Shown here: one piece after another, positions 9,533 to 60,900 of the stretch
How the letters are laid out: every line of letters begins with the position of its first letter
Position numbering within the stretch: position 1 is the stretch's first letter
Assembly (NCBI GenBank): GCA_003971905.1
Contig: RSEE01000006.1
Span: forward strand, 620,001-684,000
DNA length: 64,000 nucleotides
From: Moniliella sp. 'wahieum'
Lineage: Eukaryota
Direction of reading: 5' to 3'
Made by a program: the position numbers and the translations under genes
The notes under the pieces: model-generated
Seen by the model: the letters and a program-made list of their open reading frames with translations, nothing else
What the model was told of the DNA's origin: nothing
The model's database searches: none

Positions 9533-10610
9533 CGCCGCAGACAGGCAGGAGACGGAGGAGAAGAAGAGACGGGAGGAAAGGCCGGGAAGACGGGGCAACA
9601 AGAGAAGTGGGCGCCTAAAGAACAGCCACGCAAGACAAGTGCCGGCGGCGCCTCTCTTGAGCTTGAAGCCTGCAGCTTCAGTACTCCGTCTGCTTCCCGC
9701 CTCGCCCAGCGCCAATCGCCCCATCTGCCCTGGGCGCCGCAGCAGGGCACCGCGCCAGTCTTACCTGGCGCTCTCTTCGGCCGCACTTGAAACTTTTCTG
9801 TGCTGAGCAGCGTTGTTGAGCGCTGGGCGGATGCGCTGATCCGCAGATTATCAATTGACGCGCTTGGCAAGGCTCCACGGGCGCAAGTAAGTCCCCGGCG
9901 AGTCGCCGATACAAAACACCCGGGGATCGGCTGGACAGTTGTTGCTCAGCCCATCCGGTGTCTCCAGCTGCTGAGCTTCAGCTTCAAGCTTCAGAGCTTC
10001 AGCAGGCTCCAGCGTCGGCACGAGCCCCTCTGCCACCTGTCTACGCCGCTGGCAACATCGCAACACCACACCATCCATGCGCGCTACTGACTACCCGCCC
10101 GCTGTTCGCCAGTCTATATTCAGTGTGCCGGGGATGCACGCGAGTGGATCCACTCCCTTCTTTTGGCCATTCGAGGAGTGTGCGTACGGATAGTACGTGT
10201 TTGTCTCTCCAGAATGTGCCTGCAAGAGAATTAATGATACCTTGGTGAAAGGCATTCCAGTGGCATAGCTCTACCATGAACAGATTTGGGAAGCATCCAT
10301 CTCGTCGGGGTATGAACGTGAACGTTGAACTGTGTGGAGCAAGATAAAAAAAACCTTCCTCGCTCTTTTCCCCCTCACACTGTCTTCCCACAGCTCTTCT
10401 CCACATTGAGGGCTCTGATTTATGATAGGCAACCGATGCTATACTGCACGGGTTTTCTTCGGCTATGGGCATCAAACTCGTCACACTTGAAGGAAGAGAC
10501 ATTTGATATTCATACGAAGTACATTTTGTACTTGTGCCAGGCGCTAGTTTCTCGCCGTGCGCGCTACAGTATGCCCTCGGTTTTCCGAGGGCACGGAAAA
10601 CGAGAGCCGT

Positions 10611-11788
10611 TTACTTGTCAACATCGAGGACGATGCGGCCGGCCAGTTTGCCATGGTGCATGTCGGTGTACACCTGGTTGAGCTCTGAAAGCCCCTTGAG
10701 CTGGTATGACCTTGACCTTGCCCCGCTCGGCGAGACGAAGCGATTCCAGCGCATCCTGCCGGTTGCCCACGATCGATCCCACAATCTTCTTGGCAGTAAC
10801 CGTCGTGTCAAACACGTCGGCCTTGATCACCGTGCCGGGGGGCATGCCCACAGTGACGAGGGTGCCACGGGCCGGATGTAGCGAGGCCTTGGGTGTAAGC
10901 CGAGTCGCTCGCAGCGGCCACGACCGCGCCGTGTGCACCCAGCCCGCCAGTCAGTGCCTTAATGTCGGCAACAATGTCCTTGGACACCTTAAAGTCGAGC
11001 CATGCGTCCGCGCCCAGCTTCTCCACCAGCGCCTTCTTCTCAGCTCCCGTGTCAATCGCAATGACGCGGTAGCCAAACGCGGCAGCATATTGCACACCCA
11101 AGTGGCCCAGTCCACCCCCAGCACCGGGAATGACGACCCACTCGCCCGGTTGCAGGTTGGCCTCCTTCAGGGCGCGGTAGATCGTCACACCAGCGCACAA
11201 GATGGGCGCCGCATCGACCAAGGCCAGGCCGTCGGGATCTTGGTCATACTTGGCCGAGGAGACCACGTACTGCTGGAAGGTACCGTCCACAGAGTAGCCC
11301 GAGTTCTGGATGTGGATGCAGTTCGACTCAAATCCTACGCGGCAGTAGTCGCAGTTCAGGCAGGCGTCGGCCACCCACTTGATGCCCACGCGGTCGCCGC
11401 GCGCAACCCATTGGTCGGCACCGGGGCCAAGCTTGACAACAACGCCGGCGCCCTCGTGGCCACCGACGAGAGGCTCGCCCGTGGCCTGTTGCTTGGTGGC
11501 CAGGGGCCAGTCGCCGAGCATGGCGTGCAAGTCGCTGTGAGAAAGACGAGGAGATCAGAGGCCGGGTGCAAAGGCGGGAGAGCAAGAGCAAAAGAATAAT
11601 AGAGACAGAACATACGTGTGGCAGACACCCGAGTAGGTGATGCGGACCAAGACTTCGCCTTCCTTGAGCTGAATGGCGCTTGGGTTGTACTTGACAAACT
11701 CAATGGGGCCGCCCGTCTTGGTAAAGACGGCCTTGGTAGCGGCAGCAGGCACCTCGAGCTGCTTCTCACGAACGTCGACAGAGGCCAT
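10611..11788 (-). CDS. ADH1: Zinc-dependent medium-chain alcohol dehydrogenase (ADH1-like), intron ~11537-11614
   Basis: YSGVCHT|DLHAMLGDWP, GGHEGAGVVV, GDRVGIKWVADACLNCDYC..ESNC, APILCAGVTIYRALK, GAGGGLGHLGVQYA, GSIVGNRQD, GKLAGRIVLDVDK*. Confidence 0.93.
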
Positions 11789-11879
11789 GGTGGTGATGGT
11801 GGTGGGAGTGGTTGAGGGCGGTAGAGGAAGTAGGATGTAGGGGGGTGGGGAGAGGAGAGGAGGAGGGACGCGAGAGAGG

Positions 11880-11889
11880 GTATATATAC
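11880..11889 (-). promoter_or_regulatory. TATA box of the ADH gene
   Basis: GTATATATAC about 92 bp upstream of the ADH ATG, followed on the minus strand by a pyrimidine-rich tract, in otherwise GC-rich sequence. Confidence 0.7.
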
Positions 11890-14059: not shown

Positions 14060-14667
14060 GGTGTGTGGAGGTGGGCGAAGGAAGGAGGGGTGCAACTGGA
14101 CTGGAGTTGGGGTTGATGCAAATGGGCAAGTGGAGTTAAATTAGTGTGCATCTCCGGCGGCCCGGAACGAATCCCGGACGGGGCGGCAACAGGGGCGGTG
14201 AAAAAGCGGACACGATAGCCGGCCTAGGTGCCGGCTTGGCACAAGTTGCAATTTTTAGTCAATTCAACCTGATTGCGGTTATCGAATCGACTCGACTATC
14301 GCCCTAGCTTCAAGTTGGGCAAGACAGTTGTGGCCACACTGAGGATCAAGCTTTAAGCAGGCAGGCCAGGCCTAAGGCCAGACCTAAGGCCTAAGGCCGC
14401 GGCCCGAGGACTCACATCACTAGTCACTATCACTCATCTCCGAATCGCTCCGTTATCAAGTTGATACTGGCATGTTATCGATTACCGAGATTATCGGCAT
14501 CCGTTTTTCATGCACGCGACATCCCCTCACATTTCCGAGGTGGGGAAGCAAATGGTACCGAAGAGTGTGTACATAAACATCTCCCGTACCCCATCGGCTC
14601 GCTTTGCCTCCACCCGCTCCCTCCTGCAACCTCGATCCTATCGGAAACGGCGAGCACAGTTTTTGTC

Positions 14668-15758: not shown

Positions 15759-17745
15759 CTTCCTACTAGTTGCGTGGGCTACATGGGGGCAGGATGCGGC
15801 TCAATCCGCCCGGCGCTGGTGGGACATCTCTTCCCGTTTGGGCGATGATCGGTCTGTGGTAGCACGTCTCAGGCATGAGCTCAGACCTCATGGACAACCG
15901 TAGACAGAAAGGGTGCGCCAAAGACGAGATGGCGATTGGAGATAACGTTTTCTTTTGTGCCAGACAATTTGGAGGGTTGGCATTGATCGTGGCCGCGAGG
16001 CCAGAATCGATGACGTGGCCAGTCGTGGCATCCACTTTCGATGGGTTACCGGTTCCGCGTTCCGCGTGATGACTGGATCACAACTATCTGGTGGTATTCG
16101 TGCAATGAAAAGCCGTAGTCGCCCGAGTATAGCAACAGAATGGTGCAACCCCCTGAAGCGGGGGCAGAGCGAGGACGCGTAGGTAGAACGAGGCAGACTT
16201 GGATGGTGGTGCGGCTGACGTAACGAGACGCTGAGCGTCTGAACGGAACGCTGGAAGGTGGAGACAAAGCTTATGCGCCCATCTGAGCGGCGCCGCAGCT
16301 TGTCCAGCATGGTTCCGACGCGGGGCCGCATGCTAGCGGGCACCCAAGCATGTGCAGCCGAGAGCGGGCCCTGGCAGCGCAGAGTGTAGCTCCCCACCCC
16401 CACTGGGCCACTGTCACCCAGTTGTTAGTTACTCGTCACTCTTCAGTACCTTCAGTGCCTCAGCGCTTCAGCGCTCAGCGCCACCACTCCCTCATCCCCG
16501 ACATGGCCCCGTCCCAGATCCCGATCCCAGATCCCACCATTGAAACGTGCAACCTGCACTAGGGTGCTGCTGCCCCCCCCCCTCACAGCGGGGCCTAGCG
16601 GGGCCTGGTGACGGAGGCGTGTGGACACTCGCGCTGTGCGGGGAGGCGGGCGGATCGGGGCAGGGCCGGGAGCAGTACCGGTGTGGGTTTGATGGATCGC
16701 AGGGGTGGGGGCCGGTGGGAACACACTGGTGGATGCGGGCGGGGGCTGCGCCTGACAGGCATCGCAGACAGACTGGCGTGTGGGCTGGGGGCTGGGCTGG
16801 GCAAGGCGCCACACTCCCACCGCAGTTGTGACGGGGCACCACACGGGGGGCGTTAGGCGTTAGGCGCCGGCCTGGGCAGCACACTGGCGCCCGGCGGGCC
16901 GTCGAAGCGGGTTGGACCAGCACAGAGGCGCGGTGCAGGGGCGGGCGCAGTGCGTGGGTGCTGCTGCTGGCAGCAAGCAGGGTATGTATATGCCGTGCGA
17001 AGGATATGTGCCGGCCAGTATTTGTCGGTGGCAGCAGCGGGTGAGACGGGACAGCACCGACGCACAACTATGCAGATTCCGACGAAGCACCGAGCAGAGT
17101 GGCGCTGTGCGGAGCACCTGCGCTCGGCTGGGCCAAGCAGCCCAGCGCAGAGCCAGCCGCGCAACGCCTCCAGTCCGGGTCTGGTGTTAAAATCCTGCCA
17201 CGCCTGCCTCCTTCTCCGCCCCCACCACCGCTTGTGAGTACGCCCCCCCCCCCTAACCCCCTGCCCCTCCCGCGGCCAAGCCGTGGTGGCGTGCCCGTCC
17301 CTGTCCCTGCCGTGGCTTGTTGTCCACGGTGCGGGCAGAGCTCGCCCAGTACTCACATCTCTCCCTCGCTGCGTATACCCCCTCGATGATCTCACGATGG
17401 GCGCAGCGCGGCCACCCCCTCTCCTCGCTGAATGCAAGTGTTCCTCTCGTGCTGACCAGCTTAAACTTGCTCTCTTCTGCCTCCTGCCGATCCACGCGCT
17501 TTGAAGACGGCTTGAAAAAGCGACGGCTCAGCGCCCCCTCTCCCCGGCCTCTCCCCTACTAATCCGTCACCTAGAAGACTTCAAGATTGATCTCCCCTTT
17601 GGGTGAACGATCTCTTGACTGGCTCGGTGTACACTCGCATCTCCCAACTTTTTCTCACCTCTCTACCGACTTCTCCCGCTCTCCTTTCTCCCCCCCACCC
17701 CCGACCACCTCCCTCCCCCTTTCCACCCCTGCAACCTATCCAACC

Positions 17746-18829
17746 ATGGCTATTGTCCCCACCCAAACCAACCTTTTTGCCGCGCCTTCCCGCCCCGCCT
17801 CATCCGGCAAGGCCCCCCGCCGTGTGAGCAGCTCGACGGCAGCAGCTGGCAACCGTAAGGCCAGCCAGGACAAGCGGGCGAACCACAATGCAATTGAACG
17901 TGCTCGCCGGGAAAGTCTCAACCAGCGCTTCTTGGTACGCTCTCCTCCCAATATATTGGATGGCGCTGTATGTGCCCCCACAATGTGTGATCACTGACCA
18001 TTTGCTTGTCTAGGTCTTGGCGTCCAAGATCCCGGCCATTTCCGAAGTGCGGCGTCCGTCCAAGTCGCTGATTGTCAATCGCTGCCTGCAATTTGTCGCA
18101 GACTCGCTCGCGCGCGAGGCACTGTACCGCAAGATGCTGATTGAACTGCACGACCGTACGCGCGTGCTGACGGAGCAGCTGAACGAATACCGTCTCGCCA
18201 ACGGTCTGCAGAACTATGTCGAGGCGGTGCCGGACTTGGTGCTGCCCGTGGCGCTGGCTGATGTGGCCAAGACAAGCCTACGGCCCGTATTGTTAGCCGT
18301 AAGGGCGCTATGAATGCCGCTGGCATCGATGACCTCGGCTTGGCGGAGGAGGAGTATGGGATGGACGACTATGACGACGCCCCTTTCTGCGCCGACGGTT
18401 TGACTGTGACATCGGACGAGCCGGCCTTCTTGCCCCACCTGCCATCTACTCGAACAAATCATCCGCATCCGTCTCGGCGCCCTTGCCAGCGCCTTACGGC
18501 GCGTTGCCTCCCCGGGCTTACGCTTCCGCCCGTCGACGATGGATATGAATGCCACCCCCTTCTTCCACCTTCCCGGGGCGGGATCAGAGATGACTGCCTC
18601 GCCAGAGAGCCAACCGGATCTGTCTGCCTCTCCTTCTACGGACTCGCACATAACTGATTCGTCCTACAGTCCTGGCGCGCTGCCTGTTCATCAGTTCGAG
18701 ATGCCGAACCAGTTTGGCAAGATGTTCCCCATGTTCAACCTGGATGCCGGGGCCGGGGGGTACGCAACGCCGACGGAGCTGACGACCGAGTTGTCCACCT
18801 TTCTCGGTGCACAGAGCTACCGTCCCTAA
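17746..18829 (+). CDS. bHLH transcription factor, intron 17935-18013, frameshifted C-terminal half
   Basis: Basic region KRANHNAIERARRESLNQRFL, a GTACGC..TAG intron, then LASKIPAISEVRRPSKSLIVNRCLQFV and a coiled-coil segment. Confidence 0.88.
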
Positions 18830-19798
18830 GTCCTAACGCGCACCCTGTGTCCCGTCTTCCTTTTCTCGTCTCCGTCCTGGCCCCACTTTGCCTTTCGGCT
18901 TTCTTGCTGTTCCGTTGCTTCTGCCTTCTGTTCTCGTTTGTCCATCGCGTCTAGCCATGCTTGCTCCCTTACGATGGACCATGGGTCACTGTCCCCCCCT
19001 CCTCGGTTTCCACCTCCTCTCTGTTCCTCACCGGACCGCTCTCTGGCTGCCCGCCACATTCGTTTTCTCTCTCCCCCATGTCCCCCACCACTGGCTACGC
19101 TGCGCGTGCCCCTCTCCACTATCTTGAATCTCCCTTTCCTTACATCCGTCTGCTTTCTCGCTAGTCTTCCTTAGGTATAGCTTTCGCATGCAAAGGAGAG
19201 GCGTCGGATGCCGAACGCGTGAGAGTGCGGTGGAATGTGAGATGTGGGATGTGGGATGGTCGATGGTATCAGGTGTGGCTCGCTAACCGAACCACCGGGT
19301 CAACGGCAATCAACGTCATCATCGAATCAGTGCCTCCCCCCCCCCCCCTCCACCCCTGCCGTATTAAGCACTAAGTGCTACTAGGCGCCCATTGCGCCCA
19401 TTGAATGGACAAGCGCTAAACCTTAGCTCTATGCGGTTCACTTTCTCTTCTCTGGGGCGATATAGTCCTTTTTTGCTCTCGACCTTATCGTTCCCTCGGC
19501 AAGCTTTCCTTTCGGTGCTCAGCTGAGCATGATGCAACGGTCGAGAGAGGAGCATTACTACCCCCGCCGGAGGCCTGACCGACCTGACCGTCACCGATCA
19601 CCCTTGGATCCACCCCGATGCTCGCTCTACACCGTGGAACGCACGAGAACGCAGAGGGCGAGGGATTCGATAACCGATAATCGATAACACCATCAGTCCC
19701 TCTGGCCCTACCGCTACCCTTTGGATGCACATGGCTTCAACTGTGCCTCGTCTCGGTACGCGTAACGCGGTCCATGTTACAACGCCATCTTGGCTCCA

Positions 19799-19824
19799 TT
19801 GAAGCTTGAAGCTTGAAGCTTCAA
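19799..19824. repeat. 7-bp-period array (TGA AGCT)x3 TCA
   Basis: ttgaagcttgaagcttgaagcttcaa. Confidence 0.9.
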
Positions 19825-20779
19825 GTGACAAGCAGCATGCTTATCATCGTGCACCTTCGGCGCAGTAGCAGCGCGCCAAACAGCTTCTTTTTCTCCCTAC
19901 GGCCACGTACAGCGTTCAAAAGGGACGTGACGTGACGGTTGGCAGTGGATCATTTGATTAATCAAAAGGGCTCAGCGCTCAAGGCTAACTTAGCAAATGT
20001 GTGCCTGCCCGAGACTAACAATGTGTGCTTCAGATGATCAGTCCTGGTAAGGTTTACTGTTACAGGGGTGCTTTGGGGTGTTTTGTGGGCGAGCCGGTGG
20101 CGGGAAAGGTGGTTTGAGAGGAATGGTTGTGTGCGTGCATGTGGGGGGCCTGTGTGGCCGGAGGCAGGCAAGACAAGGCAAAAGGCAAGGCAAGAAGAAA
20201 AGACCGTCTGATGGCTCGCATTTCCATTGCATAGAGCGCGGCCTTCTACCTACTTACGACCCTGGCGTTGACGTGCTATTGGTGATGTATTTACCATCTG
20301 TCGGCGCCTACGGACGCTATCGACACGAAAGGGTACCCTGGCTGCGCCTCATACACGAGGAGCACCTGAACATTCGGGTCAATATCAAACGCAAGACGTT
20401 GTTCCTCAGAAACGTCTCGGTCGTGCGCCAAGCTGCCCATCAGTCTTTCGCTTTCGTACATGCCCGAGCCGCATTGACATGTTGGCATTGAGCGCGCTGT
20501 GGGGGAACGGTTTTCGTTGCGGGTACGGTGCGCATTTGGACTTGGTGCACGTCCGTGTCCAAGAGAGGGAGCGGGTACGTAGCGGCTGGATCCTGTTGCA
20601 TATTGCATCTCGACCAGCTCGACGAGGGAGCATAGGACGGCGGACGTAAGCCTTCCCCCGAACCAGTTCTTGGACGCCTAGCGGAGCCAAAGCGAGCTAG
20701 CTTGGGGCTGGTTGGAAGTTGGATAGCAGGGCCCTGATGGGCCCTGGCCACTCCCCCTGTCAAAAGGATCGAATGGGGA

Positions 20780-20799
20780 TGATCGATGATCGATGATCG
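20780..20799. repeat. 7-bp-period array (TGA TCGA)n
   Basis: tgatcgatgatcgatgatcg. Confidence 0.85.
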
Positions 20800-21364
20800 G
20801 CCGATGATCCAATAGATGTGATGTATGGCGAGGCTCATCCAGCGCAGGAGACCACTCCCAGGTCTTCTGGGTCTGGGAGTCACGGTAACCGGTGACTGGC
20901 GACGTGACCAACTGGCTCTCGATCCTATCTATAGCCCTAAGGTTAGCGGCTAAGCTTGACGTTAAGGCTTAACGCTCTCCTCGACTCGAATTCATCTGAA
21001 TAGTGAATCCATATAGGGCCTAATCCCGACCTAATGCACAGCCCCCTCTGCCCGTTGCGACGCTGGTGGCTCCTCCCGCGGGAACCTGTTGGATACCCGC
21101 AGCGTTACACATCATTTACCACGTACTATGATGTCGGGCTATTATAATAACTTACTGTCCCCTGTGGCCCAATATGATTGACCCCCCGAACCGTAGCTGA
21201 AGAACGCTTAGAATTTGAACCCAAAACACCTTTGTGTCCTTCTCGCTGTAGGGTCGATTGACCTCCATCAGCCATCGGGCATGGTGGGATCGTGTCACGG
21301 ACGTGGGAGGGAACATATGGTTCGTCCCTGCGACACATGCGTTTGCAACATGTAATCCACAAGG

Positions 21365-21385
21365 GGCCTAAGGCCTAAGGCCTAA
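21365..21385. repeat. 7-bp-period array (GGCC TAA)x3
   Basis: ggcctaaggcctaaggcctaa; the same unit also occurs at 14368-14398. Confidence 0.85.
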
Positions 21386-22042
21386 CGGAGGATCAGCGCC
21401 AGCACCAAGTACTTATTAACGATGCGTGACGCCCACACGAGCTATGTGGGACTGCGAAAGATGTTGGATACCCACCCACGTCAACCGATACGGCATAGGC
21501 GAGGATCAGCGCTCAGCGCTCAGGTCCTCGCCCAACACTACGTTCCCTTGAAGGTACTTGGCCCACCATAGGAGGTAAAATGCAAGAACCAAGGCAAGTG
21601 AGCAAGCTCGTGAGGGTGAATGGCACAAGGTGGTTATAACATTCTTAGACGCATAGGGAAAAGATGAGAGGGAAGAGGGGGGCGGGGGGGGGGAGTTGTA
21701 CAGGCACAAGGGAGACAAAAAACGGTATGGTACAAACAAAAAGCTCGCAAGCACTCCCGGAAGACCAAAATCCAACATCCCAGGATCTTCTCCCCTCAAG
21801 CAGGGGGCGTCTTGGGCCCAACCTACCTAGCAAGGAAAGCGAGGAAAAGAACAGCTAGACGGGCTGGTATGCAGTTGGGAGCAAAGCATGGAGGGGGGAG
21901 CCATAGTGCATAGGTAAGTCCGTCAAAGGATGAGACAGGAAACGGGCGGGCCACGAGACAGATGCTTGAAAACAGGAAGGAGGGAACAGTGAAACACCAA
22001 GATACGTCCTTCTTCGATATGGTACAAGGAGGGGGGGGCGTG

Positions 22043-23047
22043 CTAGGTGCTGCGCAAGTCCAACTTGACCACCTTAGACACCAAAGGCCAGGCGCCTTGT
22101 TTTTGGCTGGGGGTTCCCGGGACATCACACAGGTCGGGGGACGCGGTAGAGTCGAGACTGCTGGGAGGCGAGGGATGAGCTTTGGCCATGGTCCCCCTCA
22201 GCGCCTCGGTCGATGCACTGGACCTGGACCCGAGGCTTCGCCCCGATAGCGATTCCATCGATGGACGGTACATTGGTGAGACGGGGGTGGAGGCCGAGGC
22301 CGACCAGGCGGTGGGCAAGCCACGGCGTAAGCTGATGTGCTGGACGGACACTCGTGCTGGGAAAAATCAATGACGCCCTCCCTATCGGATCCAGACCGGA
22401 GTTTGACACCCGATCGAGGCACCGCGGCGCCCCCGCCGTCAGTCCCGACGGTGCTTGGCGTGAGAAGAGAAGGGATTGCATGTCGAGGCCAGAGGAGGAC
22501 CGGTCCAGCAGGGGTTCGGGCGGGTGAGGCGGGGTGGCGGTTGCCCAGAGCGGGCCAGGAAGTGGCTCCTCGGCGATGGCCAAATACACGTGGGGGTGGG
22601 AGAAGATGAAGCGCATTCAGTTCGGAAGTGGGAACGGTGCGACGGAGTAGGGGGGAGGGTACCTTGGGGCCAAGAGAGGATAGATGATGGGGTTTGGTTT
22701 TGGATTGGCGGGGGGACGGGAAGGTAAACCCAGCGTTGATGTGGGTGGGGCCTGGGGCAGAGCCGGTGGAGCCATGAGAAGAAGAGGAGCTCGCATTGTC
22801 GTTGGCTCGAACCTGGTCTCACATGGGGTCCCCGGTGTAGGGGGCAACAGCCATCCGCTGGACAGGCTCGATCCACGGCGCATCCGACCGGAGCGACGAG
22901 GTGGTGTACCAGGGGACCCAGTCCCAGGACCCTTGGGAACGAAAATATATGCGCTGTGCAAAGACACCAGATGGCTGATCAGTACCGTGTGGAGAGAGAG
23001 GGGGGTTAGGAGACAGAGATGGGGACGCACTCGTTCCACTTGGTCAT
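22043..23047 (-). CDS. Hypothetical Ser/Pro-rich protein with an intron at 22954-23030; frameshifted
   Basis: ATG 23047 gives MTKWN; the GTGCGT..ACTGAT..CAG intron joins in frame to DAYIFVPKGPGTGSPGTPPRRSGRMRRGSSLSSGWLLPPTPGTP; downstream pieces end at VVKLDLRST* (22043). No family recognised. Confidence 0.5.
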
Positions 23048-24479
23048 GGTGCGGATCAGCACATCACTGGGAACAGTGGAGGGAGGAGCCAAGGCGGGAC
23101 TAGGCGTGAGGGATGGGGGATATGCTGGGTGAAGACGCAACAAGAGGAGGAAGGCAGGCGTGACAAGGAGGGGCGTTCGGTCCTGGTTGGGCAGGCGCGG
23201 GCGGAGTGGCATGGTGTTTGGCGCGGAATGGGGGGGGGGAAGATGGGTGTTGTAAGGGCGAAAATGACAAGGAAAGAGCCAGGTGAGGGGATAGCGCAGG
23301 GGGATGAAGACGGGGGAAAGAGGCGAAAGTAGGGATCGATGAGCGGGGACGTGGGAGCGGGGGGGGAAGAGAAAGAAGAAACGGCCACGCGCCCACGGCA
23401 GCGTGCCGCGGCGCCCACAGGAACGAAGGAAGAAAAGAACAGCCGAGCCGCAGCTGCGGTGGAGGCGAAGAAGAAGAAAACGGAGGGGCGGGAGGTGGTG
23501 GGGATCAGGAAAGCAAAGCGGGGGCGGTGCTAGCGCCGGCAGATAATGGCGATGCATGCGGGTGGGAAGAGACGCGCAGTGGCTATCGACTATCGTCGCC
23601 AGCTCGCAGGGGGTGTTTTGGCGAAGACGAGGGCACGACAGGGCAGCATCGTTGCTCAGGCTCAGGCCCCAGGGTTCGCTATCTACGCGCTACGAGATAC
23701 GGGGGACAGGGCGGGGTGGGTGGGTAAGATATAGCGCTGTCGCATCTAGCATCGCCTCCGGGGCGACCAGAGGGCTGAGTCACTAGCCACTAGTCACTGG
23801 TCACTGTAGTCATAGTCATAGTCACCTAGTCACCGACCATGCAATAGATCTGAGATCTGAGACTCCGATCTCAGCCCAGCCTCAGGCTGAGCGCTGGGAT
23901 AGACTGCACCCCTGCTAGTCTCCGACATGCTCGCCTGTCACACAGTCACTAGTCACCAGTGATGATGACTAGTGCCTGGTCATCAATGGATCGATGAACA
24001 CGCGTCACGCGTCACCTGCCCCCGGGCGTCAGGCCAGGGTGCTGTCTTGTGCTGGCGCTTGCACCCATGCATGTTGGGCTGCGCAGGCACTAGCACCAGC
24101 CTGCAGGCTGCAACAGCTCCCCCATGCACACATCTTCTGTGAGAAAGTGGAGCGTGCGTTGAGCGTGCGATTGATTGAACATTGCGTTGGGGAGTCCACT
24201 CTGCTGTGACATTTCACACTGTCACGTGCTACAGTGTCCGATTGGTACTGCCCACGCACGAGTGCCATTACCTCATCGCCACGCCACACGTCCTCCCAGA
24301 TGCCATGATGCATGCCTGCTGCGGCAGGTCACGTGGGTGGTGCATGTTCTTGAAACCGGCCGCAAGGGCTGCGTGGCTCCCCGTCGGATGCGCCGCGCCA
24401 GGACAGAGGTGCGGCGCGCCCTCCTACCACGCCCAGCCTCCGCGCCGTCCGCAGTCAGCCGTCCCCGCGCCCAGCCCCC

Positions 24480-26172
24480 ATGCCTGACCCGCCGCTCTGC
24501 TGCGCCCGGCGCAGTGTTTCCTGTGCGTACCCCCTCCCCTCCGCACCCTCCGACGCACCCCATCCCACCCATCTCATCTCCCCCCCGCCCTCTGACCCCC
24601 CCCCCCCCCCCCAGGCCGTCTATGCGCACATCGACGTCTTCGAGATCATTGTCGACGGCAACAGCGTCATGCGCCGTCAGGACGACTCGTGGGTCAACGC
24701 AACCCAGCTTCTCCGCGCCGGCGGAATCGAACGCTCGAGCCGCGCACGCATCCTTGCTCCGTACTTTGCCTCCGAAGCCACCCACCGCCGCGTCCAGGGT
24801 GGCTTTGGCAAGTTCCAGGGCACCTGGGTCCCTCTGCCGATCGCCATCCATCTTGCCGAGGAAATCCACTTTGCTGACCAGCTGAGGCCTTGCTCCAACC
24901 CAGCCCGCAGCTCGGCCAGGGTACGCAGCCGCCCTCGATCCCCCGCGGGGATGCCGACAATGAGCCACCAACACGTCGCCGCTCCCGCCCGCGCCCGCGC
25001 CCCAGCACCAGCACCAGCGTCCACCTTAATGCCATGTTGCTACCACCCCTGGTGCGGCCCGTTCCCCGCAGCCCGGGTCACGACGAGCATCGCCAACCCC
25101 CTCTTCCATTCTGCCTCACCTCTGCCCATGCCTTTGCAAATGCAAGTGCAGATGCCCATGTCGGTGCCCATGCCGGGGCACATGCCCCATCCCAACCTGC
25201 ACCTGCCGCTACCTCCTGCCATGTCCACGCCCCTGTCCCGTGCCCCTAGCTCGCACCTCTCCGTCCCCCTACTTAATATGCCCCCGTCTCGCCCCCTGCA
25301 TTGAGCCCAGGTGGTTCGCTTGTCAATTCCGCGGCGGCCCCTACCCTCACCCGCACCCGCACCCTGTCTTTCCCTCCACCAAGCCCGACTTGGCATTCGC
25401 TTCTTCTGTCCCCCACCCCCGCTCCACACCCGACTACCCTTCCTACACGGTCCAACCCGACCCCCCAGCAACAGAGTCAGCTGCGCTTCTTGCTGCGATT
25501 GTCCAGGCAGGTGAAGAAGGGGAGGGACAAGCTACCCCGTTGCCCTTGGCGGGCGACGTGACCATGCCTCTGGATGCAATGGGCAACACGGCGCTGCACT
25601 GGGCTGCCGCGTACGGACTAGCGGAGATGGTGGAGGAACTGAAGAAGCGCGGTGCGCTGATCAACCAGCGCAACGCCCAGGGCCAAACCGCATTGATGTT
25701 GGTGTGCAGGACAGCGTACGCTCGTCAACGCGACACGTTTCCTGCGTTGTTCCTTGGTTTGGCCCAGTGGGCTGCGTCGGACACGCGTTTCGCCCTGGCC
25801 TGGGCCTACGACCAAGACGGCAACACGCTCTTGCACCACATTGCGCTTCTGGCCGGCACCCAACCCGCCGTGGCAGGCGCCTACCTCCGCCCCTTGCTGG
25901 CAGCACTCAAGCAAGATGCGCTAGCCTCCACAGGGCAGCATGTCAAGCAACTTCTCGACTATCAAAATGCCCAGGGACAGACCGCACTGCTGATTGTCGC
26001 CCAGCACCAACAATGGCAGCTTGCCACCAGCCTGGTCGAAGCGGGCGCCAGCACTACCTTGCCAGACTTGTATGGCCTCATGCCCGCCACGCTCCTGCCC
26101 GCGCAGGAGGAGGACCTGTCGGTGCTGGCTCCGCCTCCCCCGCTGGCACCTGTAAAGGCAGGACCTGCCTAA
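24480..26172 (+). CDS. APSES (KilA-N) DNA-binding domain + ankyrin repeats, Mbp1/Swi4/Res1-like cell-cycle transcription factor
   Basis: AVYAHIDVFEIIVDGNSVMRRQDDSWVNATQLLRAGG..RRVQGGFGKFQGTWVPL (APSES); LDAMGNTALHWAAAYG, NAQGQTALM, DQDGNTLLHHIA, QNAQGQTALLIVA (ankyrin). One frameshift near 25250-25300; probable early intron ~24527-24614. Confidence 0.88.
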
Positions 26173-28327: not shown

Positions 28328-28360
28328 TCATGCATCATGCATCATGCATCATGCATCATG
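28328..28360. repeat. 7-bp-period array (TCA TGCA)x4+
   Basis: tcatgcatcatgcatcatgcatcatgcatcatg. Confidence 0.9.
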
Positions 28361-28760
28361 GGCCATGCCCATTTCAAATTTCAGGTGACGTAGGGCTGAC
28401 GCGCTGACGCAGCGCAACTTGGTCACAAGAGCCTCTTGTCTGCCCTCCATCTAACACCAATGACTAAGACGTGCCTCTGAGATTTGACGGACGGCTCGGA
28501 ACTCGGCGAGTACTGGTACTGGAACTGACCGGGGCCTGTTCGACGGTTCCGATGGCAAAGGTTCCCAATGAATGGTGCTGCTGCGTTGCAGGCCTGGTCG
28601 ATACAAGAGGCATGATGCTGATGCACTTGATGGATGGAGCGTGGGTTTGAAATCAAGCTAATCAAGACAAGTGCAGTATCCGGTCATCGTCATCGAGGTC
28701 GTCGCTGATTGATACCGGGAGCAGGCTGCCATGTGGGTGGGAAGGGGTGGGGCCTGGGGG

Positions 28761-28798
28761 CGCGTGACGCGTGACGCGCGGGGCGGCGTGACGCGTGA
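28761..28798. repeat. 7-bp-period array (TGA CGCG)n upstream of syntaxin
   Basis: cgcgtgacgcgtgacgcg ... gtgacgcgtga. Confidence 0.8.
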
Positions 28799-29284
28799 GG
28801 TAACGCCTGAGGCGGTGGCTCAACATGACTGCACCGTCACGCGTCAGCGTCACTGCGGGGCGCCCGCCATGCGGCCGCCGGCCACTGCCATCCGCCCTCG
28901 GCGAACCTCGCCCAAAAGTGGCAGCGCAACGCCCTCGCGCCACGGGGGCAGTATCCCCTTGCGCGCGCTGGCTGGCAGGCACTGCAGGCCCCCCGGGCAC
29001 GGTGGGCGCATCCCCAGGAGGGTGCCACAGGGTGCCGCGCAGCGCCGCGCGCCGTCCCCGCTTAGCTCAGCGGTGCCCCACACTGCCCCCCTGCGCACCC
29101 GCCAAACCAAACCTTTTCGCCCCGGCTTCTTCTGCGCCCGCGTCAACAGCGCCGATCAGCTCAGCCACAGCAGCCAAGCAGGTGAGTACGAGGAGCTCGC
29201 ACGCCAGTTGCCCATTCGGCCGCCACCACCACCACCCCCACCCCCGCCCACCCCTCCCCGCTTCTCCCTCCCTGCATCTTCCCC

Positions 29285-31288: not shown

Positions 31289-31307
31289 TGACCGGTGACC
31301 GGTGACC
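31289..31307. repeat. 7-bp-period array (TGA CCGG)n
   Basis: tgaccggtgaccggtgacc. Confidence 0.85.
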
Positions 31308-44712: not shown

Positions 44713-46080
44713 GGGGGCGGGGGGCAGGGGTGCTGGACGTGGGGGCGGAGACGGATGGGATGGGATGGGATGGGATGGGGAGGCGTGCGGCGGTGGCTGC
44801 GCCCTGGGCGGCACTCTGGCACCAACACAACACCAACGCTTCCACCGAGGCGACGCCTCTGCCGCAGCTCCGCACCTGCGGTCAGAGGCCCTGGCCGAGA
44901 TGCCATTTATGACATGCATGCATGACATATGACATGCAGCAGCCAGTGCCCCCGCACATGCGCCACTGCCCCGGCCTGCCCGCCCATGCTCCGCTCCGCC
45001 CGAGCGCGAGCACCCGCGTGCGGCAGGCCGCACCTCGCCACACTCCCCGCCCACCTCGGCTGTCTGCCGCAGGGCCACAGAGCCACACTGCGGCCTCCTG
45101 CCGCCTGCCATCGCAGCAGCCGCGTCATAACAGGCTGACCGGTCGCAGCCTCAGGCGCAGCGCTGGGAATATGAATAGGAATGTGTGAATGAGCATGACA
45201 TGCGCTTCATGAGACCACCGTCGCCGCCCCAATTCTCCTGGGCACCGCGTGAGTCCTCTTCGCCGCCAAGGCATCCCCGCTCGAGGCCAAGCCCACTATC
45301 ATCCAATCCATTCAGCCCACCTGGAGCAACATGCCGCAGACAGGCTGAGATTCAGATCATGCGTCTCCACCGCAGACGTGGAGCAATGCATATTTGGCGG
45401 TTTGGTGCATGCGCCTCTCCCCCAACTCTCTGGAATCTCTGAAAAGAACCTGCGTCAGGATGATGCTGCGCACGTCGGGCTGGTCGCTAAGCAACAACCG
45501 AGCTTGTCTTCGCCATTGAATATTGATCAGTGTCCCCCGTTCTCAGTTCTCAACAATGCTGATTAATGATTGCTCATCGCATCCTCTCCTGCTCAGCTGT
45601 TAATGCGAGGACAAAGGCCTACGAAAGAAAGACAGAGGGAGGTGATGGATCTATTCCAAGAAGGAGCCCGTTAGGGGCAGAACATAGAGGAGAGTCGGAT
45701 AGAACAGCGTGATGCGTGATGCGTGATCAGCATGCATGATGGCGCTGACATCAGCATCCTGAGCTGACTTGGTTGGAAGCGCGGAGATCGTGTGCAGCAA
45801 CCCAACGCGCGAGCCGGCGAACGTGGCGGTGGACAAAGCGCACGCGCTGGCGCTGTGACGCGTGGAATGGGACGTGGCTCTCATGCGCATGCCGCCCGAG
45901 GGAAGCACCACACCGTGTCTGGCATTCTCCCAGTGCAAGCTGCTAAGCTCAGCAGAACAAGCTCAGCCGCTGACACAACCTTGCTGCGTCAGCGTGTCGG
46001 CCTAACCACTGAGTCTCATCGATCACCCATCCAGTATATCATGCCTCAGGGCCTCCGCCTCCTGCTTTGGCTTTGCTCAG

Positions 46081-46157
46081 CCGCTCATGGTGAAGCGGGT
46101 TTACGCGTTACGACGTTTGCCCGCTCATGGTGAAGCGGGTTTACGCGTTACGACGTT
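46081..46157. repeat. Exact 37-bp direct duplication (period 40)
   Basis: ccgctcatggtgaagcgggtttacgcgttacgacgtt at 46081-46117 and 46121-46157. Confidence 0.92.
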
Positions 46158-47294: not shown

Positions 47295-47382
47295 TGCAAA
47301 GGGGGGTCTTGGCGACGACGGTTAGGTGGGCGACAGAGCGGACGAGAAGCCCAGGACGCAGTATAGAGCAGAACATGGAGCA

Positions 47383-48156: not shown

Positions 48157-49302
48157 ACGGGCGCTTTGCCTTGACGAGGTAGGTGGTCAGCGCCCCCCTC
48201 GGGTGTCGCCCTGCATCTGGACTGGCTTGCGTTCATTGTGGGCCCCTGCTGGTCTTGGCCAGCACCAGCTCACCTTGTAGCGTGCGAGCCACAAAAATGC
48301 TCCTCTACCCCGGCGTGGCTCGGGCGTAGTGGACAAGCGCATATGACATGTATCCATAGGTTCAATCATTGGCGTATGCAAACCCCCAAAGAAGCGAATC
48401 CTCATGTCGGGTGGGAGGCGATAATCAACCCGTTTGTCAGATTGTTACCCCCTGCTGATTGCTGTTCAGTGCCAGAGATGGAGGCAGGAAGGGCCCTGCG
48501 CGCTGAGCATATCATTTCTAGAAGGATCACTCCGGCTCCAATGGGGTTCCTCTCGGCCGTCTCTGCCTTGGTGAGTACAACTTTGAGTATAACATGTAAC
48601 ACCACAGTTTCGCCATGATGCATGTCACCTCAGGCCTCAACGGCCTCAACGCATGACTTTTCTACCAATCGCTTGGCCTCTTGTTTCGGGGTCAAAGATG
48701 CCTTCTGTTGACGAGACATCGAAGATGCATGCAGCACGGGTAGGATCCGTGCTGTGAACTGCACCACCACCACAGCCACTTTTCGCGCAGCCGTCCGTCG
48801 ACTCTGATCCGAAACCCGTCATCAGAATGGATTGTCAGAGAAGCTACCAGTGTTGGGGGGATTCGGCTACCGCGCCTCGATGTTCATGATGAAAGCCCTG
48901 CAGTCCTGATGGTCCTCGATGATGGTGATGCAGTCGCACTAGCCTGAGTGGCGGTGGTGGTCCAAACCCACCAGTAACGCTTGCAGAGGATCATCGAGCG
49001 CATCAGCCATTCGCCACCATGTAGGGGCTAAGCTGCGGAACAAGGAAAGCAGTCGGGAGGAAATACCGGAACTCGTAGGCCTGTGACATCTCTGAGGCCT
49101 GCAAAAGGGACTTTTGCGAAAAGAACACACGAGCCACCCGGTGGCTCAACAGCGGTTCACTCATATACATCTTCCAGCATTCAGGCCACTCCTCCGAAGA
49201 CATGTGGTCCTGTCCCCATTGCGGGGGGGCTGATTTCAAGGCGTCTCTCAGATCTCATGCAGGCTGAGGTATAGTGATGTGCTCTCGGTTGTTCATTAAT
49301 CG

Positions 49303-49328
49303 TTGAGCTTCAAGCTTCAAGCTTCAAG
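49303..49328. repeat. 7-bp-period array (TCA AGCT)n
   Basis: ttgagcttcaagcttcaagcttcaag; the same unit occurs at 31043, 32114 and 56683. Confidence 0.9.
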
Positions 49329-49473: not shown

Positions 49474-49520
49474 TAAGGCCTAGGCATTAACCCTTAGGCC
49501 TTAACCCTTAACCCTTAACC
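49474..49520. repeat. 7-bp-period array of TAA/TTA with GGCC and CCCT cores (telomere-like TTAACCC)
   Basis: taaggcctaggcattaacccttaggccttaacccttaacccttaacc. Confidence 0.85.
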
Positions 49521-50516
49521 ACCAACACCATGGCGATTGCATTGCTCTTGATCACCAGAGGTTCATCACCCAACTCCTTGGATTCCTCCGGTCTTACATC
49601 TAGGAACTTGGGCGACGGACCACCATCAAGATTGACCTACGCTGTCAGCCCAATTTCAAGTACTTGTGGCGAGATGTCGAGCTAGTAGTGCTAGCGCCGT
49701 GTGCCTCATGCCCTCGCTGGCTCGCCCCACAGCCACGGTGTGGCCTTGCGAACACGCGGATAACGGCCACAGCCCAGTGTCGAAGTGTGCTCAAACATTT
49801 TGCACCTACTGTTCTCGCCCTGTTTGTGCCACGAAGCCACTCTGCATGTCTCCGAGCCAGTTGGAGACAAGGGAGGAAAGAAAACGAGCAAGGGCGGCAT
49901 GATGGCCCAATGTCCAACCGAGTTGTCCCATCGCATGTGTCTTGGTCCGTCTGCTAAACCCTTCTTCTGTGGAGTCGTGAGAGTGTGGTGGGTTGTCTCA
50001 TCGCGTTAAGGAATGAGAAGTATTGTTCGTCCTACCCCCACAGCTCGTTATATGGCGACACAAAAGAGCTGCCTTTTCAGCTTCAACAACACTGAGGCCG
50101 GCAACGAAGCAGCAGTAACACGAGGCGCTTCGGTCGAGCCAACAGTGCTGCCCATGGCGCAGGATTGCTGAGAGGCTATGCCTTTGTTTACGTGGCATGC
50201 AGGGAGAGGGGGGGGGTGGGGGGTAAAAGGCCGAAGAGCAAGATCATCGAGTCTAAGAAGTAAGGTAGGCGTGTCAACATGTCAACACAGACAGAGGAGA
50301 CGAAGAAGGAGTCAGATCTCAGATGGCAGTCGGCCAGTGGGTGGGGACACGGGCATGGCGCCGGCATGTCAAGCTCAAGAAGATCAGTGTGACTTGGGAA
50401 GTAGCTGGCCCTGGATGATGGCTATGACTAGATGACTGCAGTACTGGGCCGCAATGACAGACAGTGGCTGATGACGATGAATATGAATGGGCAACCGGTA
50501 ACCTTGGGTAACCCAG

Positions 50517-50538
50517 TGACGCGTTACGCGTTACGCGT
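50517..50538. repeat. 7-bp-period array (TNA CGCG)x3
   Basis: tgacgcgttacgcgttacgcgt. Confidence 0.85.
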
Positions 50539-56440: not shown

Positions 56441-56994
56441 TGGGGGCGGGAGGACTCTGGGGGCGGGCCACGCCAGGGACCTGCGAAGCGTAGGGAGCCG
56501 ACGACCGGAGGCGGGGACGATGCCAACGTCAAGCTTCAACAGTCTGAAAGAAACAAGGCCAAGGCCCCGCCGCCCAGATCGAGTCGCAGTCACGTGCGGG
56601 CGGGCGCCTCGCCGATTTCAAACGTGCATCGCCTCGATCACTTCGTCGTACGTGTCAAAACGCAAACGAGCGCTGAGCCGCGTCAAGCTTCAAGCTTCAA
56701 GTATTCGATTGCCTCTACTCGTTTCCGGTCGTCTGGTAGCATCGCCTTCCGCAGGGGTGCAACCGTAACGCGCGATTGCGCTGCTCTCTAATGGCCGATG
56801 CCTGTATCCCGCCGAGGGGGTCTCTTTCTATCAACTCCCAGGAAGCAGAACGCTTTTGCCCTCGGGGGGAGACAACTATATGATGAGGCACGATGAACAG
56901 GAAAGTACAACCGAACGAGATAGAATGAGCAGGCCACTGAAAGAGTGTGCTCCTCTCCGGCATAGAATATCGATCTGGGTAGCACGTACCCGCG

Positions 56995-57974: not shown

Positions 57975-60900
57975 GGTGGCCGAGAGGAACGGAGGCTGAA
58001 GGAGAAGGGGAGATGGTAGGGGGAAGCGAAGCGGAGGAGGCTCTGATAAATGCGCCCAGCTATCGCCCTAGCTCAGCACTTGAAGCTTCACCTCACCAGC
58101 CAGGTCACTGATCACCCTTGGTCAATCATTGATCAGCGATCAGGGATCATCCCGGGGCAGAGGGCGTGAGTACGTGAGGACGTGAGGACGTGAGTGGGGC
58201 GGTGGGTGATCATCGATCAAGGAGCGTGGAAACCCCGCTCCCCCCGGCCCGAAGCTGGCCCGGTCCGCCCGCTCGGGCGGGGAGCAGCAGGGGCCCCGCT
58301 TGGCGGCCCCGGTTGGGCCGGCGGCCGCAGCATGTTGGCTGCATGTGGTTGCGCCGCCGGCAACGTTCATTGTTCGGGTGCCGCCCGGGCGCAAAACGCT
58401 GGCTGGCGGCCCGGATGGAAGAGGAGTTGCCCTCGCTATAGTCATCGTGTAACCATGTATGAACCCCCCAAAATGCCTCTGTTACTTCTCAGGACGCTCG
58501 AGACCCTCTCTAAGGGCTGGCCGCAACTCAATGTTCAGCAAGCCCAACACCTCTCAGTGTCTCAACGAACGTTCAGGATGACGTTCACAACGCTCGGTAC
58601 TGTTTTCCCACAGAAAAACAAGGTACAAGCACCAGGCACATATATCCGTCTACGACAGGAATCATTCTGTCATCAGACTTGATAGGGGTTTCTCTCATCG
58701 CTCTTTCCAGATGTGCTGCTTTTTTGTCAAAGAGCGAGCAAACTGGGCTGGCAATGCAGCCACAAGACCTCACCATCAACAATGAATATCCGGGGTAAAT
58801 CCACACCCTGGGTCCACTGAGCTTACATAACCAGCCGAGAAGTGGAACGCTTGCGGTTGCGGGTCAACCTCTGTGTACCACTCTGCGCCACCCCCCGTTC
58901 ACAGCCATGCCTAACGTCTTTGACTAGTCCATCGGGCGCTTGTTACGGGTCTTGCCGGTGCGAGCGTTGGAGGTGTTGGTATGTTTGCTTTGGTATGCCG
59001 GATCATCCAAGCAACGGGCAGAGGTATGCTTGCCATGTTTGGGGTTTATGATGGGGTCACCGGCTACCCAGCTTCCGGGGCCCCATTTGCGTCAACTACT
59101 GACCATCTCGTTGTGTTTGGACAGACGCGCAAGATCCAAGTGCAAGAGGCGATCGATGCTGGGGATTATGTGGAGCCAGTGCCACCGCCTAAGCCCGAGG
59201 GATTAGCGGCACCACCGCGACCCCAAGACACGCCACTGAATGACACGGGCGCTTGATCTACCAGCTGGCCGAAGAGATGATCAAAGGAGTTTTTGAGCAA
59301 GACAAACCGCGCTCATAACCGATGCAAGAACTGCGCTGATTAATGATTGCTGCCCATGTATTCTTCCAACTCCCCTCCCATTTTCTTCCGCTCGACTGGC
59401 CATAGAACCATCCATACCCACTCACCCAATGGTGCCCTGGTGGGCTCAATGTTCACCTAAGCATGCTTCACAGCATGCATAAGGTCGAAGCGCTGGAGAG
59501 TTGTGCATTTCCTTCAAGATATGGGAGGCAATGCCAGACCAAAATGATGTTTCGATGCTCTCCTGTTTTTCGTGTACCTCAGCCAGACTCGATGGTACCT
59601 AGATTGTTTTGGTGTCCGTGTAGATGTCGTTGTTGACTGGATTTCCCCGCTACGGTCACCACTAATGATACGATTGCATCACCCTCGAGAGTCAACAGGA
59701 CTTCCGCGGTCTCAATACCGTATGTGTAGTGCCGGTAATGGTATAAAAGGTGTCGTATTGATATCTCAGGTGGGGCCGTACGCTGCTCGATTGGGGGGTA
59801 TGAGCTGGACAAAGACAATAGAAGTTGGAGCAGCGTGGGGGGACCGACGAGAGAATGTTGGGAGAAGGAGACTTGGCCAAGAGGAGACGGGAGGTGTCGA
59901 TCGACCCAAATGTTTTTTGCTAGAGACGCAACTAATGATACACACTTGTGACTTATTGTCAAGAGCACAGAAAGAAAGTCAAAAGGCGGCAGGCGGTACA
60001 ATGTATTGCTTATTGGCGGCAAAAGAGACATGAGAGAGAAGGACAGGTCCTTATGTATGGACACCAGAAATTGTTGTATTATAAAAGATGCACTATATGG
60101 CGAAGAAAGCGAGGGGATAATGAGCTACTGGCCAATAAGATGAAGCACGTTTAGGTGAGTATAGTATGCGATGATGCGGAGAGAGTGCGCCGTTTCACGC
60201 CTTCGTTTGGAATGTCTTCCCTTCCTGAGGACGGCCTTCTAGTCTCAGACTTGCTTGGCCCTGGACAAGGCTTGCTCTGGCGCTGGCTTCTTCTCCATCA
60301 GCTCTTGGTACTTGTAAGGACACCCAACTTTCGCACATTGCGGCAGCAACTCGCCGGAGCAACTCGTCTCTCGCCCATCTGGCTAAGGCTCAACTGAAAT
60401 CCAATGTTTCAAACCGACGTGCCGTATGGCTTGGATTTTGAAACATGCACACTTGAAAGGTGGGCGGGGAACGTGGACCGATGATCGGGTGATCGGTGTG
60501 CCATTGAATATTGACTGCTTGACCCCACAGCCAGGCCGAGCCCAGGGAATCGGCACAGCGCCTGTCACGTGTCACGTGTCGCAAGGCTGCGACGGCGTGG
60601 GACCGGTGGGCTTCGGGGGGGCGGGGATGCAAAGCACAATGGGGCTTGGAGAGGCTGCCGATAGACAGCGAGTCGCTGGTGTCGAGTGCCGAGTGCCGAG
60701 CGATCCAGCCGATCGATGATTCGGCGCCTCGGTGATAGGGGATGTAGCGACTAGTGATGCATGATGTGTATGATGAGTGATGCCACCGCAAACGGATTTC
60801 TCAAACGCAGCTTCTGGCTCCTCTGAAGCGGCACTGCCCCTTCGGCGGCAGCGGAGTGCTGCGTGGGCCGGCAGGCAAGCAGCCAAGCATGTGGACGACC

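Follow-up and report, generated by a model that had tools for sequence, protein, structure and literature searches.

The 64-kb window analysed here, a stretch of 64,000 nucleotides of contig RSEE01000006.1 from Moniliella sp. 'wahieum', carries intron-split fungal genes and, mostly between them, many short tandem arrays in which a T-N-A triplet recurs every 7 bases around a 4-base core. These heptamer arrays are the subject of this work. The G+C content of the window was 59%. Long open frames with fungal domains were split across several frames, as in intron-split genes, and contained 2-oxoglutarate dehydrogenase (at least four pieces), an ATG17-like domain (in an ATG11-like frame), syntaxin, APSES/KilA-N with ankyrin, sphingolipid desaturase, cis-prenyltransferase and ribosomal proteins S24e and L23. 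A dehydrogenase exon had its best named relatives in Ceraceosorus guamensis (75%), Tilletia horrida (72%), Pseudozyma hubeiensis (72%) and Violaceomyces palustris (72%), and one further protein matched this exon at 90%. A protein search with the ATG11-like reading frame gave no match. These relatives, together with the split fungal domains, indicated that the window came from an intron-rich member of Ustilaginomycotina. A greedy, self-trained exon map, which was rough and left introns unresolved, covered 48% of the window, and its subset of strong exons covered 37%. Coding signal from G+C content at third codon positions and from sliding log-odds (self-trained codon models) was too weak for use, and coverage by long open frames (79-94% of the window) was too permissive as a coding map.

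All 25 tandem arrays of TNA plus four bases listed in the initial annotation showed the stated unit, that at 58079 with only ~1.4 copies and a flipped centre base. Tandem Repeats Finder (score ≥30) reported period 7 in 40 of 141 rows, compared with 17 for period 6, 12 for period 8 and 17 for period 9; matches within the arrays were 75-100%. An excess of period 7 was seen in two further counts: the regular expression (TNA N4)x2 TNA occurred 29 times, against 5.0 ± 2.5 in 50 dinucleotide shuffles, and its equivalents at periods 4, 5, 8, 9 and 10 occurred 1, 4, 7, 7 and 2 times, against ~4, with 14 at period 6. Match-runs of equal length have an identical chance expectation at each period and are therefore directly comparable across periods. 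Those of at least 8 bases numbered 10, 17, 28, 8, 10 and 10 at periods 5 to 10 (up to 0.9 in shuffles at run length 8), and those of at least 10 bases 5, 8, 19, 1, 4 and 2 (at most 0.1 per run length in shuffles).

Seventeen of the 28 period-7 units were odd palindromes, self-complementary at 6 of 7 positions (null 0.11, binomial p 3e-10), that is, a 6-base palindrome plus one base with the consensus S-N-T-S-A-N-S. No such excess was seen at periods 5, 6, 8, 9 and 10 (2/10, 0/17, 0/8, 1/10 and 0/10). Since the 11 non-palindromic period-7 arrays matched the background of 8-10 arrays at the other periods, the palindromic class accounted for the entire period-7 excess. Within this class position 3 was T in 15/17 units, position 1 was C in 12/17 and the centre was mostly C or G, and at least nine of the 16 possible 4-base palindromic cores were present. 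Single-copy palindromic NNT-N-ANN sites outside the arrays were not enriched (184 vs 175 ± 14), indicating that the sequence preference belongs to the process that makes the arrays. By our ratio the T-N-A centre was preferred ~40-fold, with ~20 arrays to 184 single sites, compared with 2 to 764 for the other centres.

The shortest form was a 12-mer, T-N-A-a-b / b'-a' / T-N-A-a-b, in which a 5-base direct repeat surrounds a 2-base inverted copy of the neighbouring bases. This signature was found at 69 positions, compared with 0.23 in shuffles; with other centres it was found 7 times for G-N-C (0.93 in shuffles), 5 times for C-N-G (1.37) and not at all for A-N-T (0.23), and the centre-flipped version occurred at just two loci. 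When merged, the signature positions gave 41 loci: 27 of 12 bases, 6 of 14, 1 of 17, 3 of 19, 3 of 21 and 1 of 33. Twenty-one of the 25 positions annotated initially coincided with these loci, and 20 loci were new. Palindromic units were present in 29 of 97 period-7 match-runs of length 5, i.e. 12-mers. The rule that the 2-base filler is the reverse complement of the adjacent two bases, counted without filtering for palindromes or T-N-A, was obeyed by 31 of 94 length-5 runs, against 5.3 ± 2.1 of 41 in 40 shuffles. Relative to the number of runs, it was not enriched at the (period, filler) combinations (5,1), (5,2), (6,1), (6,2), (7,1) and (8,1-3), the count at period 8 being 3/18 against 1.4/10.6 in shuffles.

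The phase of the isolated 12-mers was fixed and asymmetric. Among 22 isolated palindromic T-N-A 12-mers, 17 started at T (nine) or ended at A (eight), the two being mirror images (binomial p 3e-6 vs 2/7). Match-runs with T-N-A units of length 6 (n = 6) and 7 (n = 3) were about as frequent as chance extension of 12-mers would give, all six of length 6 being compatible with one base of such extension, and a separate class of clean 14-mers was absent from these runs. These counts bear on a simple alternative origin, a 7-base duplication by staggered cutting and fill-in, with no hairpin step, of targets that were already palindromic (S-N-T-S-A-N-S). Six loci of exactly two perfect units and three of exactly three are what it would produce, and array ends fell at the core centre in 10 of 34 cases by our count, compared with 4.9 expected. 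Yet exact length-7 runs with a T-N-A palindromic unit numbered just three and length-6 runs six, about what the 17 in-phase 12-mers would yield by chance extension; in the 27 loci of the dominant class the outer dinucleotide is mismatched; and ~184 single palindromic NNT-N-ANN sites were left unduplicated. We consider an origin by simple duplication improbable.

The sites as they would have been before the event were reconstructed for 27 loci. By eye, the first and seventh positions were complementary in three and the second and sixth in two; the centre base was C or G in 22/27, and the outer positions leaned weakly to C or G. The palindrome thus arises in the event and was absent from the target beforehand, and it is because the core is created by the event that cores vary while period and triplet stay constant. 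The 11-mer lacking the leading T was found at 10 further positions (0.93 in shuffles), indicating that this T is preferred and not required. Three period-9 cases obeyed the filler rule, against 0.5 expected. Two of them, at 16441 (in the region 16441-16481, which continues with a GCGC-core 12-mer at 16468-16479) and at 28651-28666, were 7-base direct repeats with T-C-A exactly central, split by a 2-base inverted copy of the last two bases; a central T-N-A in two of the three has p 0.005. These variants and the equal numbers of mirror-image 12-mers indicated that the duplicated target is 7 bases long and symmetric about N, and not 5 bases long.

The initial annotation had offered two readings of the arrays, a recognition code for a DNA-binding or chromatin factor and the footprint of a specific mutational process. 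The second is favoured here and can be sharpened: at nnT-N-Ann sites 7 bases are inserted, of which 4-5 are a direct and 2-3 an inverted copy. In its elementary form the event lengthens p1-p2-T-N-A-a-b, where N is mostly C or G, by 7 bases and gives p1-p2-T-N-A-a-b / b'-a'-T-N-A-a-b or its mirror image, with a total length of 14 and a period of 7. We give about an even chance to the proposal that the arrays are scars left by breaks with hairpin-capped ends and a stagger of 7 bases, the simplest case being the footprints of a cut-and-paste transposon on excision. DNA flanked by two copies of a 7-base target would be excised, leaving covalently closed hairpins on the flanks. Each hairpin would be nicked ~2 bases off its tip to give a 4-base 3' overhang (two original bases and two P nucleotides), with the other strand recessed by 2; one 3' overhang would be kept and the other removed before the ends were joined. 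Opening of the second hairpin at its tip would give the period-9 form. Flank-hairpin chemistry of this type is that of RAG and of the transposases of MULE, hAT and Transib elements. As the agent, a cut-and-paste transposon whose target-site duplication of 7 bases is centred on T-S-A (S, C or G) would be simplest, and a host nuclease derived from such a transposon would be expected to leave an identical scar. Other activities were set aside by reasoning: topoisomerase II for its 4-base stagger, Spo11 for its 2-base stagger, tyrosine recombinases for making no duplication, and PIF/Harbinger with a 3-base T-N-A duplication, with which the a-b copy after the second T-N-A is impossible.

The new unit b'-a'-T-N-A-a-b would itself be a perfect 7-base palindromic target, so that re-insertion and excision would add perfect units. 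Such re-hits, or slippage aided by small hairpins with a T-N-A loop, could extend scars into arrays of 2-5 units. The region 28327-28383 (window coordinates without strand assignment, as throughout) held the longest array, with a TGCA core, 4.9 units and the 7n+5 phase plus one base, followed by an isolated AATT-core scar at 28372-28383. AGCT-core arrays lay at 19799-19825 (7n+5 phase, the centre base of the last unit flipped from G to C), at 26306-26321 and 32114-32128 (two perfect units each), at 49306-49328 (three perfect units) and at 56683-56701 (exactly 19 bases, 7n+5 phase, upstream of the cis-prenyltransferase gene). A TCGA-core array of three perfect units was found at 20778-20799, with a fourth unit after a 4-base insertion, a GGCC-core array of three units with a T-A-A centre at 21365-21385, a GCGC-core array of 2.6 units at 21506-21523, and a CCGG-core array of three perfect units at 31287-31307. 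Of five arrays of at least 19 bases that were not exact multiples of 7, four held the 7n+5 phase (56683, 28328, 19800 and 21367), the phase of array ends being weakly informative in longer arrays.

An alternative to the scars is hairpin-assisted replication slippage without any transposase. Odd-palindromic units would loop out with a T-N-A triloop, escape mismatch repair and expand, period 7 being the shortest unit that can fold. The 15 arrays folded did form small T-N-A triloop hairpins of -0.9 to -8.2 kcal/mol, compared with -0.2 to -2.3 kcal/mol for shuffles; palindromic loops reportedly evade mismatch repair in yeast, a finding attributed to Nag, White and Petes in 1989. The outer unit positions were mostly C or G in 15 of 17 exact palindromic arrays (C in 12), some arrays consist of exactly two or three perfect units, and unrelated organisms, bacteria among them, also carry arrays of the same unit. 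Slippage nevertheless requires two copies at the outset, and shuffles gave 0.23 signature positions against the 69 observed. It leaves unexplained the fixed asymmetric phase of the isolated 12-mers (17/22), the mismatched outer two bases of the first unit and the period-9 variants with a 7-base repeat and inverted filler. The T and A of a triloop need no complementarity, yet T-N-A is preferred ~40-fold, and no self-complementary excess was seen at periods 5 or 9. Slippage alone explains the growth of arrays and not their birth, phase or period-9 forms, and as a full account it is rather unlikely; the folding of the arrays into triloop hairpins indicates that it may contribute to growth of the scars.

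Most of the 41 loci were single scars. An L-phase scar at 5116-5127, at the edge of an NGP1/NOG2-like gene, was the sole one inside a strong predicted exon. An R-phase scar with an AGCT core (9982-9993) lay within a mixed period-6/8 array (9974-10002). Other isolated scars had the core ACGT (10319-10330), TCGA (19676-19687, with a T-A-A centre, and 58208-58219), GCGC (19970-19981), AGCT (31043-31054), GGCC (39966-39977, in the gap downstream of the S24e ribosomal protein gene), GATC (49246-49257 and 50312-50323), TTAA (59337-59348), ATAT (60503-60514) or TGCA (60755-60766); a CATG-core and a GGCC-core scar lay together at 48590-48639, and the 12-mer at 58079-58090 had an AGCT core with the flipped centre base. 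Two scars with cores of A and T only were found within 45515-45571 (45515-45526 and 45560-45571), and identical 12-mers recurred at 60503 and 59337, respectively. The bases flanking the pairs 45515/60503 and 45560/59337 were similar; these pairs could be independent scars of a like target type, or genuine shared promoter motifs.

Compound regions were found as well. Between divergent genes, 14363-14434 held a GGCC-core array (two perfect units at 14383-14396) and a CTAG-core scar (14417-14428). A hot spot at 23778-24015, also between divergent genes and upstream of the APSES/KilA-N gene, held a degenerate CTAG-core array (23778-23835), a GATC-core array (23846-23862), a CTAG scar (23944-23955) and a CGCG-core array (23999-24015) of ACGCGT repeats. 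Within 23778-23835 one motif appeared in sub-runs of period 6, 7 and 8, a mixture such as varied joints would presumably give. Three CGCG-core scars or arrays lay within 28761-28846 (28763-28776, 28787-28798 and 28835-28846). The ACGCGT arrays at 23999-24027 and 28752-28778, which lie in different promoter gaps, had a common C-rich tail, the two forming an inverted pair of 27 bases with 89% complementarity. A CGCG-core scar with a T-T-A centre was present twice at 46101-46152, inside an exact tandem duplication of 40 bases (46081-46157, 1.9 copies, 100% identity), and was thus counted twice among the 41 loci. A CGCG-core array with a T-T-A centre (50519-50538), carrying ACGCGT three times, lay upstream of the 2-oxoglutarate dehydrogenase gene.

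Three arrays departed from the canonical form. Non-canonical period-7 arrays at 45707-45727 (three units) and 60563-60580 (CACGTG plus T) had a filler one base off the inverted-copy rule. In the compound array 49481-49520 a canonical GGCC-core scar (49492-49503) was joined to a non-canonical period-7 array with the unit TTAACCC; the TTAACCC array (49487-49520, 4.9 copies) adjoins the canonical scar and breaks the inverted-filler rule. A telomere-like origin of this array was set aside by reasoning; TTAACCC is not the canonical telomere unit. C tracts of 17-22 bases (2775-2794, 24596-24612 and 61164-61185) and C-rich repeats recurred in gaps and at gene starts.

The intergenic position reported for the arrays held approximately: by the exon map, 4 of 41 loci fell in the 48% of the window predicted as exon (p 1.8e-7) and 1 of 41 in strong exons, and long genes at 32.3-38.0, 40.4-45.2 and 51.0-54.5 kb contained no locus. 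A specific link of the arrays to start codons, also suggested initially, was not shown. By our reading of the exon map, loci occurred in divergent, tandem and apparently convergent gaps, the last at 19161-22046, 26145-26781 and 39749-40420, and we see no specific tie to promoters. A 7-base insertion is presumably not tolerated in coding sequence, and scars would persist solely where it is tolerated, i.e. between genes. The gap at 19161-22046 (~2.9 kb) had weak coding signal between apparently convergent genes and contained, besides several other arrays, six signature loci; a gene or non-coding transcript that escaped recognition may lie within it.

The same distribution bears on the recognition code, in which an abundant factor would read phased T-N-A triplets, or homodimeric transcription factors would read the 6-base palindromes, and selection would keep the arrays in promoters. 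That the loci lie almost wholly outside predicted exons, and several of them in divergent promoter gaps, would suit such a code. So would the ACGCGT repeats at 23999, 28761, 46141 and 50519, one of them upstream of the APSES/KilA-N gene, and the recurrence of two AT-core 12-mers with similar flanks. These repeats resemble MluI cell-cycle boxes, and the family of the APSES/KilA-N gene binds boxes of this type in yeasts. A code of this kind is nevertheless very improbable, and this part of the initial annotation found no support: single palindromic sites are at background (184 vs 175 ± 14), at least nine different cores are used, the asymmetric fixed phase (17 of 22 isolated 12-mers) would be meaningless for binding, a centre-to-centre spacing of 7 bases is probably too tight for neighbouring dimers, and loci lie in gaps of every type, apparently convergent ones included. 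Six-base palindromes such as ACGCGT in promoters would instead be a by-product of the scars, and individual products of this kind may have been co-opted as binding sites.

Several observations weigh against an origin of the arrays as excision scars. Nearly all of the statistics rest on one 64-kb window and a rough exon map. A search of the window and its loci for a terminal-inverted-repeat element with flanking repeats of 5, 7, 8 or 9 bases found none, only self-matches of the arrays and pairs at chance level; repeated families in the window were the arrays and C-rich tracts only, with no donor element, and no transposase was found among the window's genes. The simple scar model predicts one imperfect end unit, and nine exact-multiple loci are not predicted by it: those with exactly three perfect units at 20778, 31287 and 49308 and six with exactly two. 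More than one event was carried by 14 of 41 loci, compared with ~9% under uniform targeting (a rough estimate), so that the model needs hot spots or slippage. The flipped-base footprint of hAT elements, scored on both sides, was not enriched (9/94 vs 5.05/40.6 in shuffles). In eukaryote-like metagenome contigs (194 kb), isolated 12-mer scars were not enriched (18 vs 16.5 ± 4.4). Finally, multi-unit arrays of the commonest unit, AAGCTT plus one base, were also present in prokaryote-like contigs, indicating that such arrays can arise otherwise.

These metagenome contigs had been fetched for carrying three copies of the commonest unit. In the prokaryote-like ones (345 kb) isolated 12-mer scars were at shuffle level (37 vs 37.7 ± 8.0). 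Dense scars as a general feature of fungi were dropped as a proposal, the metagenome 12-mers being at shuffle level. Multi-unit palindromic T-N-A heptamers did occur on an Agaricomycete-like contig (L045; best named match Thelephora terrestris, 64%), and several palindromic T-N-A heptamer arrays on a fungal-looking contig with an NLR-like gene (L060). The latter also carried a retroelement, marked by an open frame of 1034 residues in which domains of reverse transcriptase and RNase H were found (16918-20019). Many of the fetched arrays were of the known bacterial heptamer type: on prokaryote-like contigs L014, L016, L034, L035, L061 and L031, long AAGCTT-plus-one arrays directly adjoined arrays of related non-palindromic heptamers. 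L031 encoded Bacteroidota-type proteins (DUF5686, CarboxypepD_reg).

Taken further, the scars suggest, tentatively, a hitherto undescribed and very active break-and-rejoin system in this basidiomycete lineage, either a cut-and-paste transposon family with a 7-base T-S-A-centred target and RAG/Transib-like exact flank hairpins, or a host nuclease domesticated from such a family; on this possible reading ~one in twenty intergenic T-S-A sites would have been hit. If the arrays are excision scars, the signature is the trace of a mobile element or nuclease at work, an agent itself out of view whose target (nnT-S-Ann), stagger (7 bases) and chemistry (exact hairpins on the flanks, opened ~2 bases from the tip) could be read from the scars alone. 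Such an origin would then also provide a concrete mechanism for the birth of a class of short tandem repeats, the heptamer repeats. Standard microsatellite surveys end at 6-base units, so that heptamer arrays would be missed by them. In a compact fungal genome, repair scars would moreover give rise to palindromic sites in promoters: since any site that is hit becomes a perfect palindrome of 6-7 bases, the scars would be a steady source of promoter dimer-binding sites such as ACGCGT.

Among known systems, ordinary slippage microsatellites resemble the scars in having short head-to-tail copies outside coding sequence that decay with age. They differ in that the window arrays have one sharp period, a preferred centre triplet, self-complementary units and, in the shortest, a fixed phase; growth at random phase from chance seeds, as in a slippage microsatellite, was not what the window showed (phase fixed in 17/22; 0.23 positions expected from chance seeds vs 69 observed). 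Bacterial heptamer repeats of the STRR-like kind share with the window arrays the period of 7, the intergenic position and the AAGCTT-plus-one unit. The bacterial arrays are longer (4-7 units) and adjoin arrays of related non-palindromic units, whereas the window arrays have 2-5 units and unrelated cores, and the window, unlike a prokaryotic genome, encodes intron-split fungal genes. The canonical footprint of the Tc1/mariner element Sleeping Beauty is TA + C(A/T)G + TA. Like the scars, it is an odd palindrome of 7 bases with an ambiguous centre base at the donor site; its palindrome derives from the transposon ends and only TA is duplicated, whereas the variable bases of the scars come from the target, of which 5-7 bases are duplicated.

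The target duplication of Transib is 5 bases, with the hairpin placed exactly at the end of the flank, and the 8-base target consensus of hAT elements is nTnnnnAn. The even-centred palindrome of the scars fits Transib and RAG, but a 5-base duplication leaves the 7-base repeats at 16441 and 28651 and the symmetric centre unexplained. The hAT consensus does not agree with the reconstructed targets, in which T is the third and A the fifth of 7 bases.

The closest likeness is to footprints formed through flank hairpins (Ac/Ds, other hAT elements, MULE, Transib and the P nucleotides of V(D)J joining), in which, as in the scars, copies of the duplication are joined via an inverted copy. Hairpin opening and end joining lead to target-duplication copies joined via a short inverted copy (PMC5873905, PMC5499845). 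When Ac/Ds is excised in Candida albicans, what is left is either a short deletion or an insertion of palindromic P nucleotides, and one or two joints dominate (PMC5873905). Such dominance of one or two joint types within a host was also seen in the scars of the window. The fixed-length duplication of this class was found as period 7 throughout, with a full 7-base repeat plus 2-base filler in two scars, and P nucleotides at the joint as the filler rule (31/94 vs 5.3/41; 69 vs 0.23 for the T-N-A class); a donor element with terminal inverted repeats and a transposase was not found within the 64-kb window.

The scar period of 7 is unlike that of hAT (8), MULE (8-10) and Transib (5). A target duplication of 8-10 bases is given for MULE (PMC5499845). 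A stagger of this kind did not agree with period 7, and filler excess was absent at periods 8-10 except for the three period-9 cases, of 7-base repeat plus filler. Ac/Ds footprints have as their centre the complement of the base beside the element, whereas the scar palindromes have an even centre. A 7-base target duplication that fits the period of the scars is made by hAT7, described as hAT families with 7-base target duplications in the Pucciniales, also basidiomycetes, and reported from Puccinia and Melampsora only (PMC12730594); its superfamily forms hairpins on the flanks. The main text of that article contains no word beginning 'Ustilag', 'Exobasidi' or 'Malassezia', and no hAT7 copy or transposase was found in the window. 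The even-centred palindromes and the lack of a flipped-base excess make hAT7 a candidate by stagger length only.

A literature search found no published account of dense footprint scars iterated into heptamer arrays, and no publications on heptanucleotide repeats in Ustilago. Footprints with P nucleotides are well known; what we could not find in print is the window-wide, dense occurrence of T-S-A scars with a 7-base period, iterated into palindromic heptamer arrays. This dense iteration, with 41 loci in 64 kb and growth into arrays, is a further difference between the scars of the window and known footprints.

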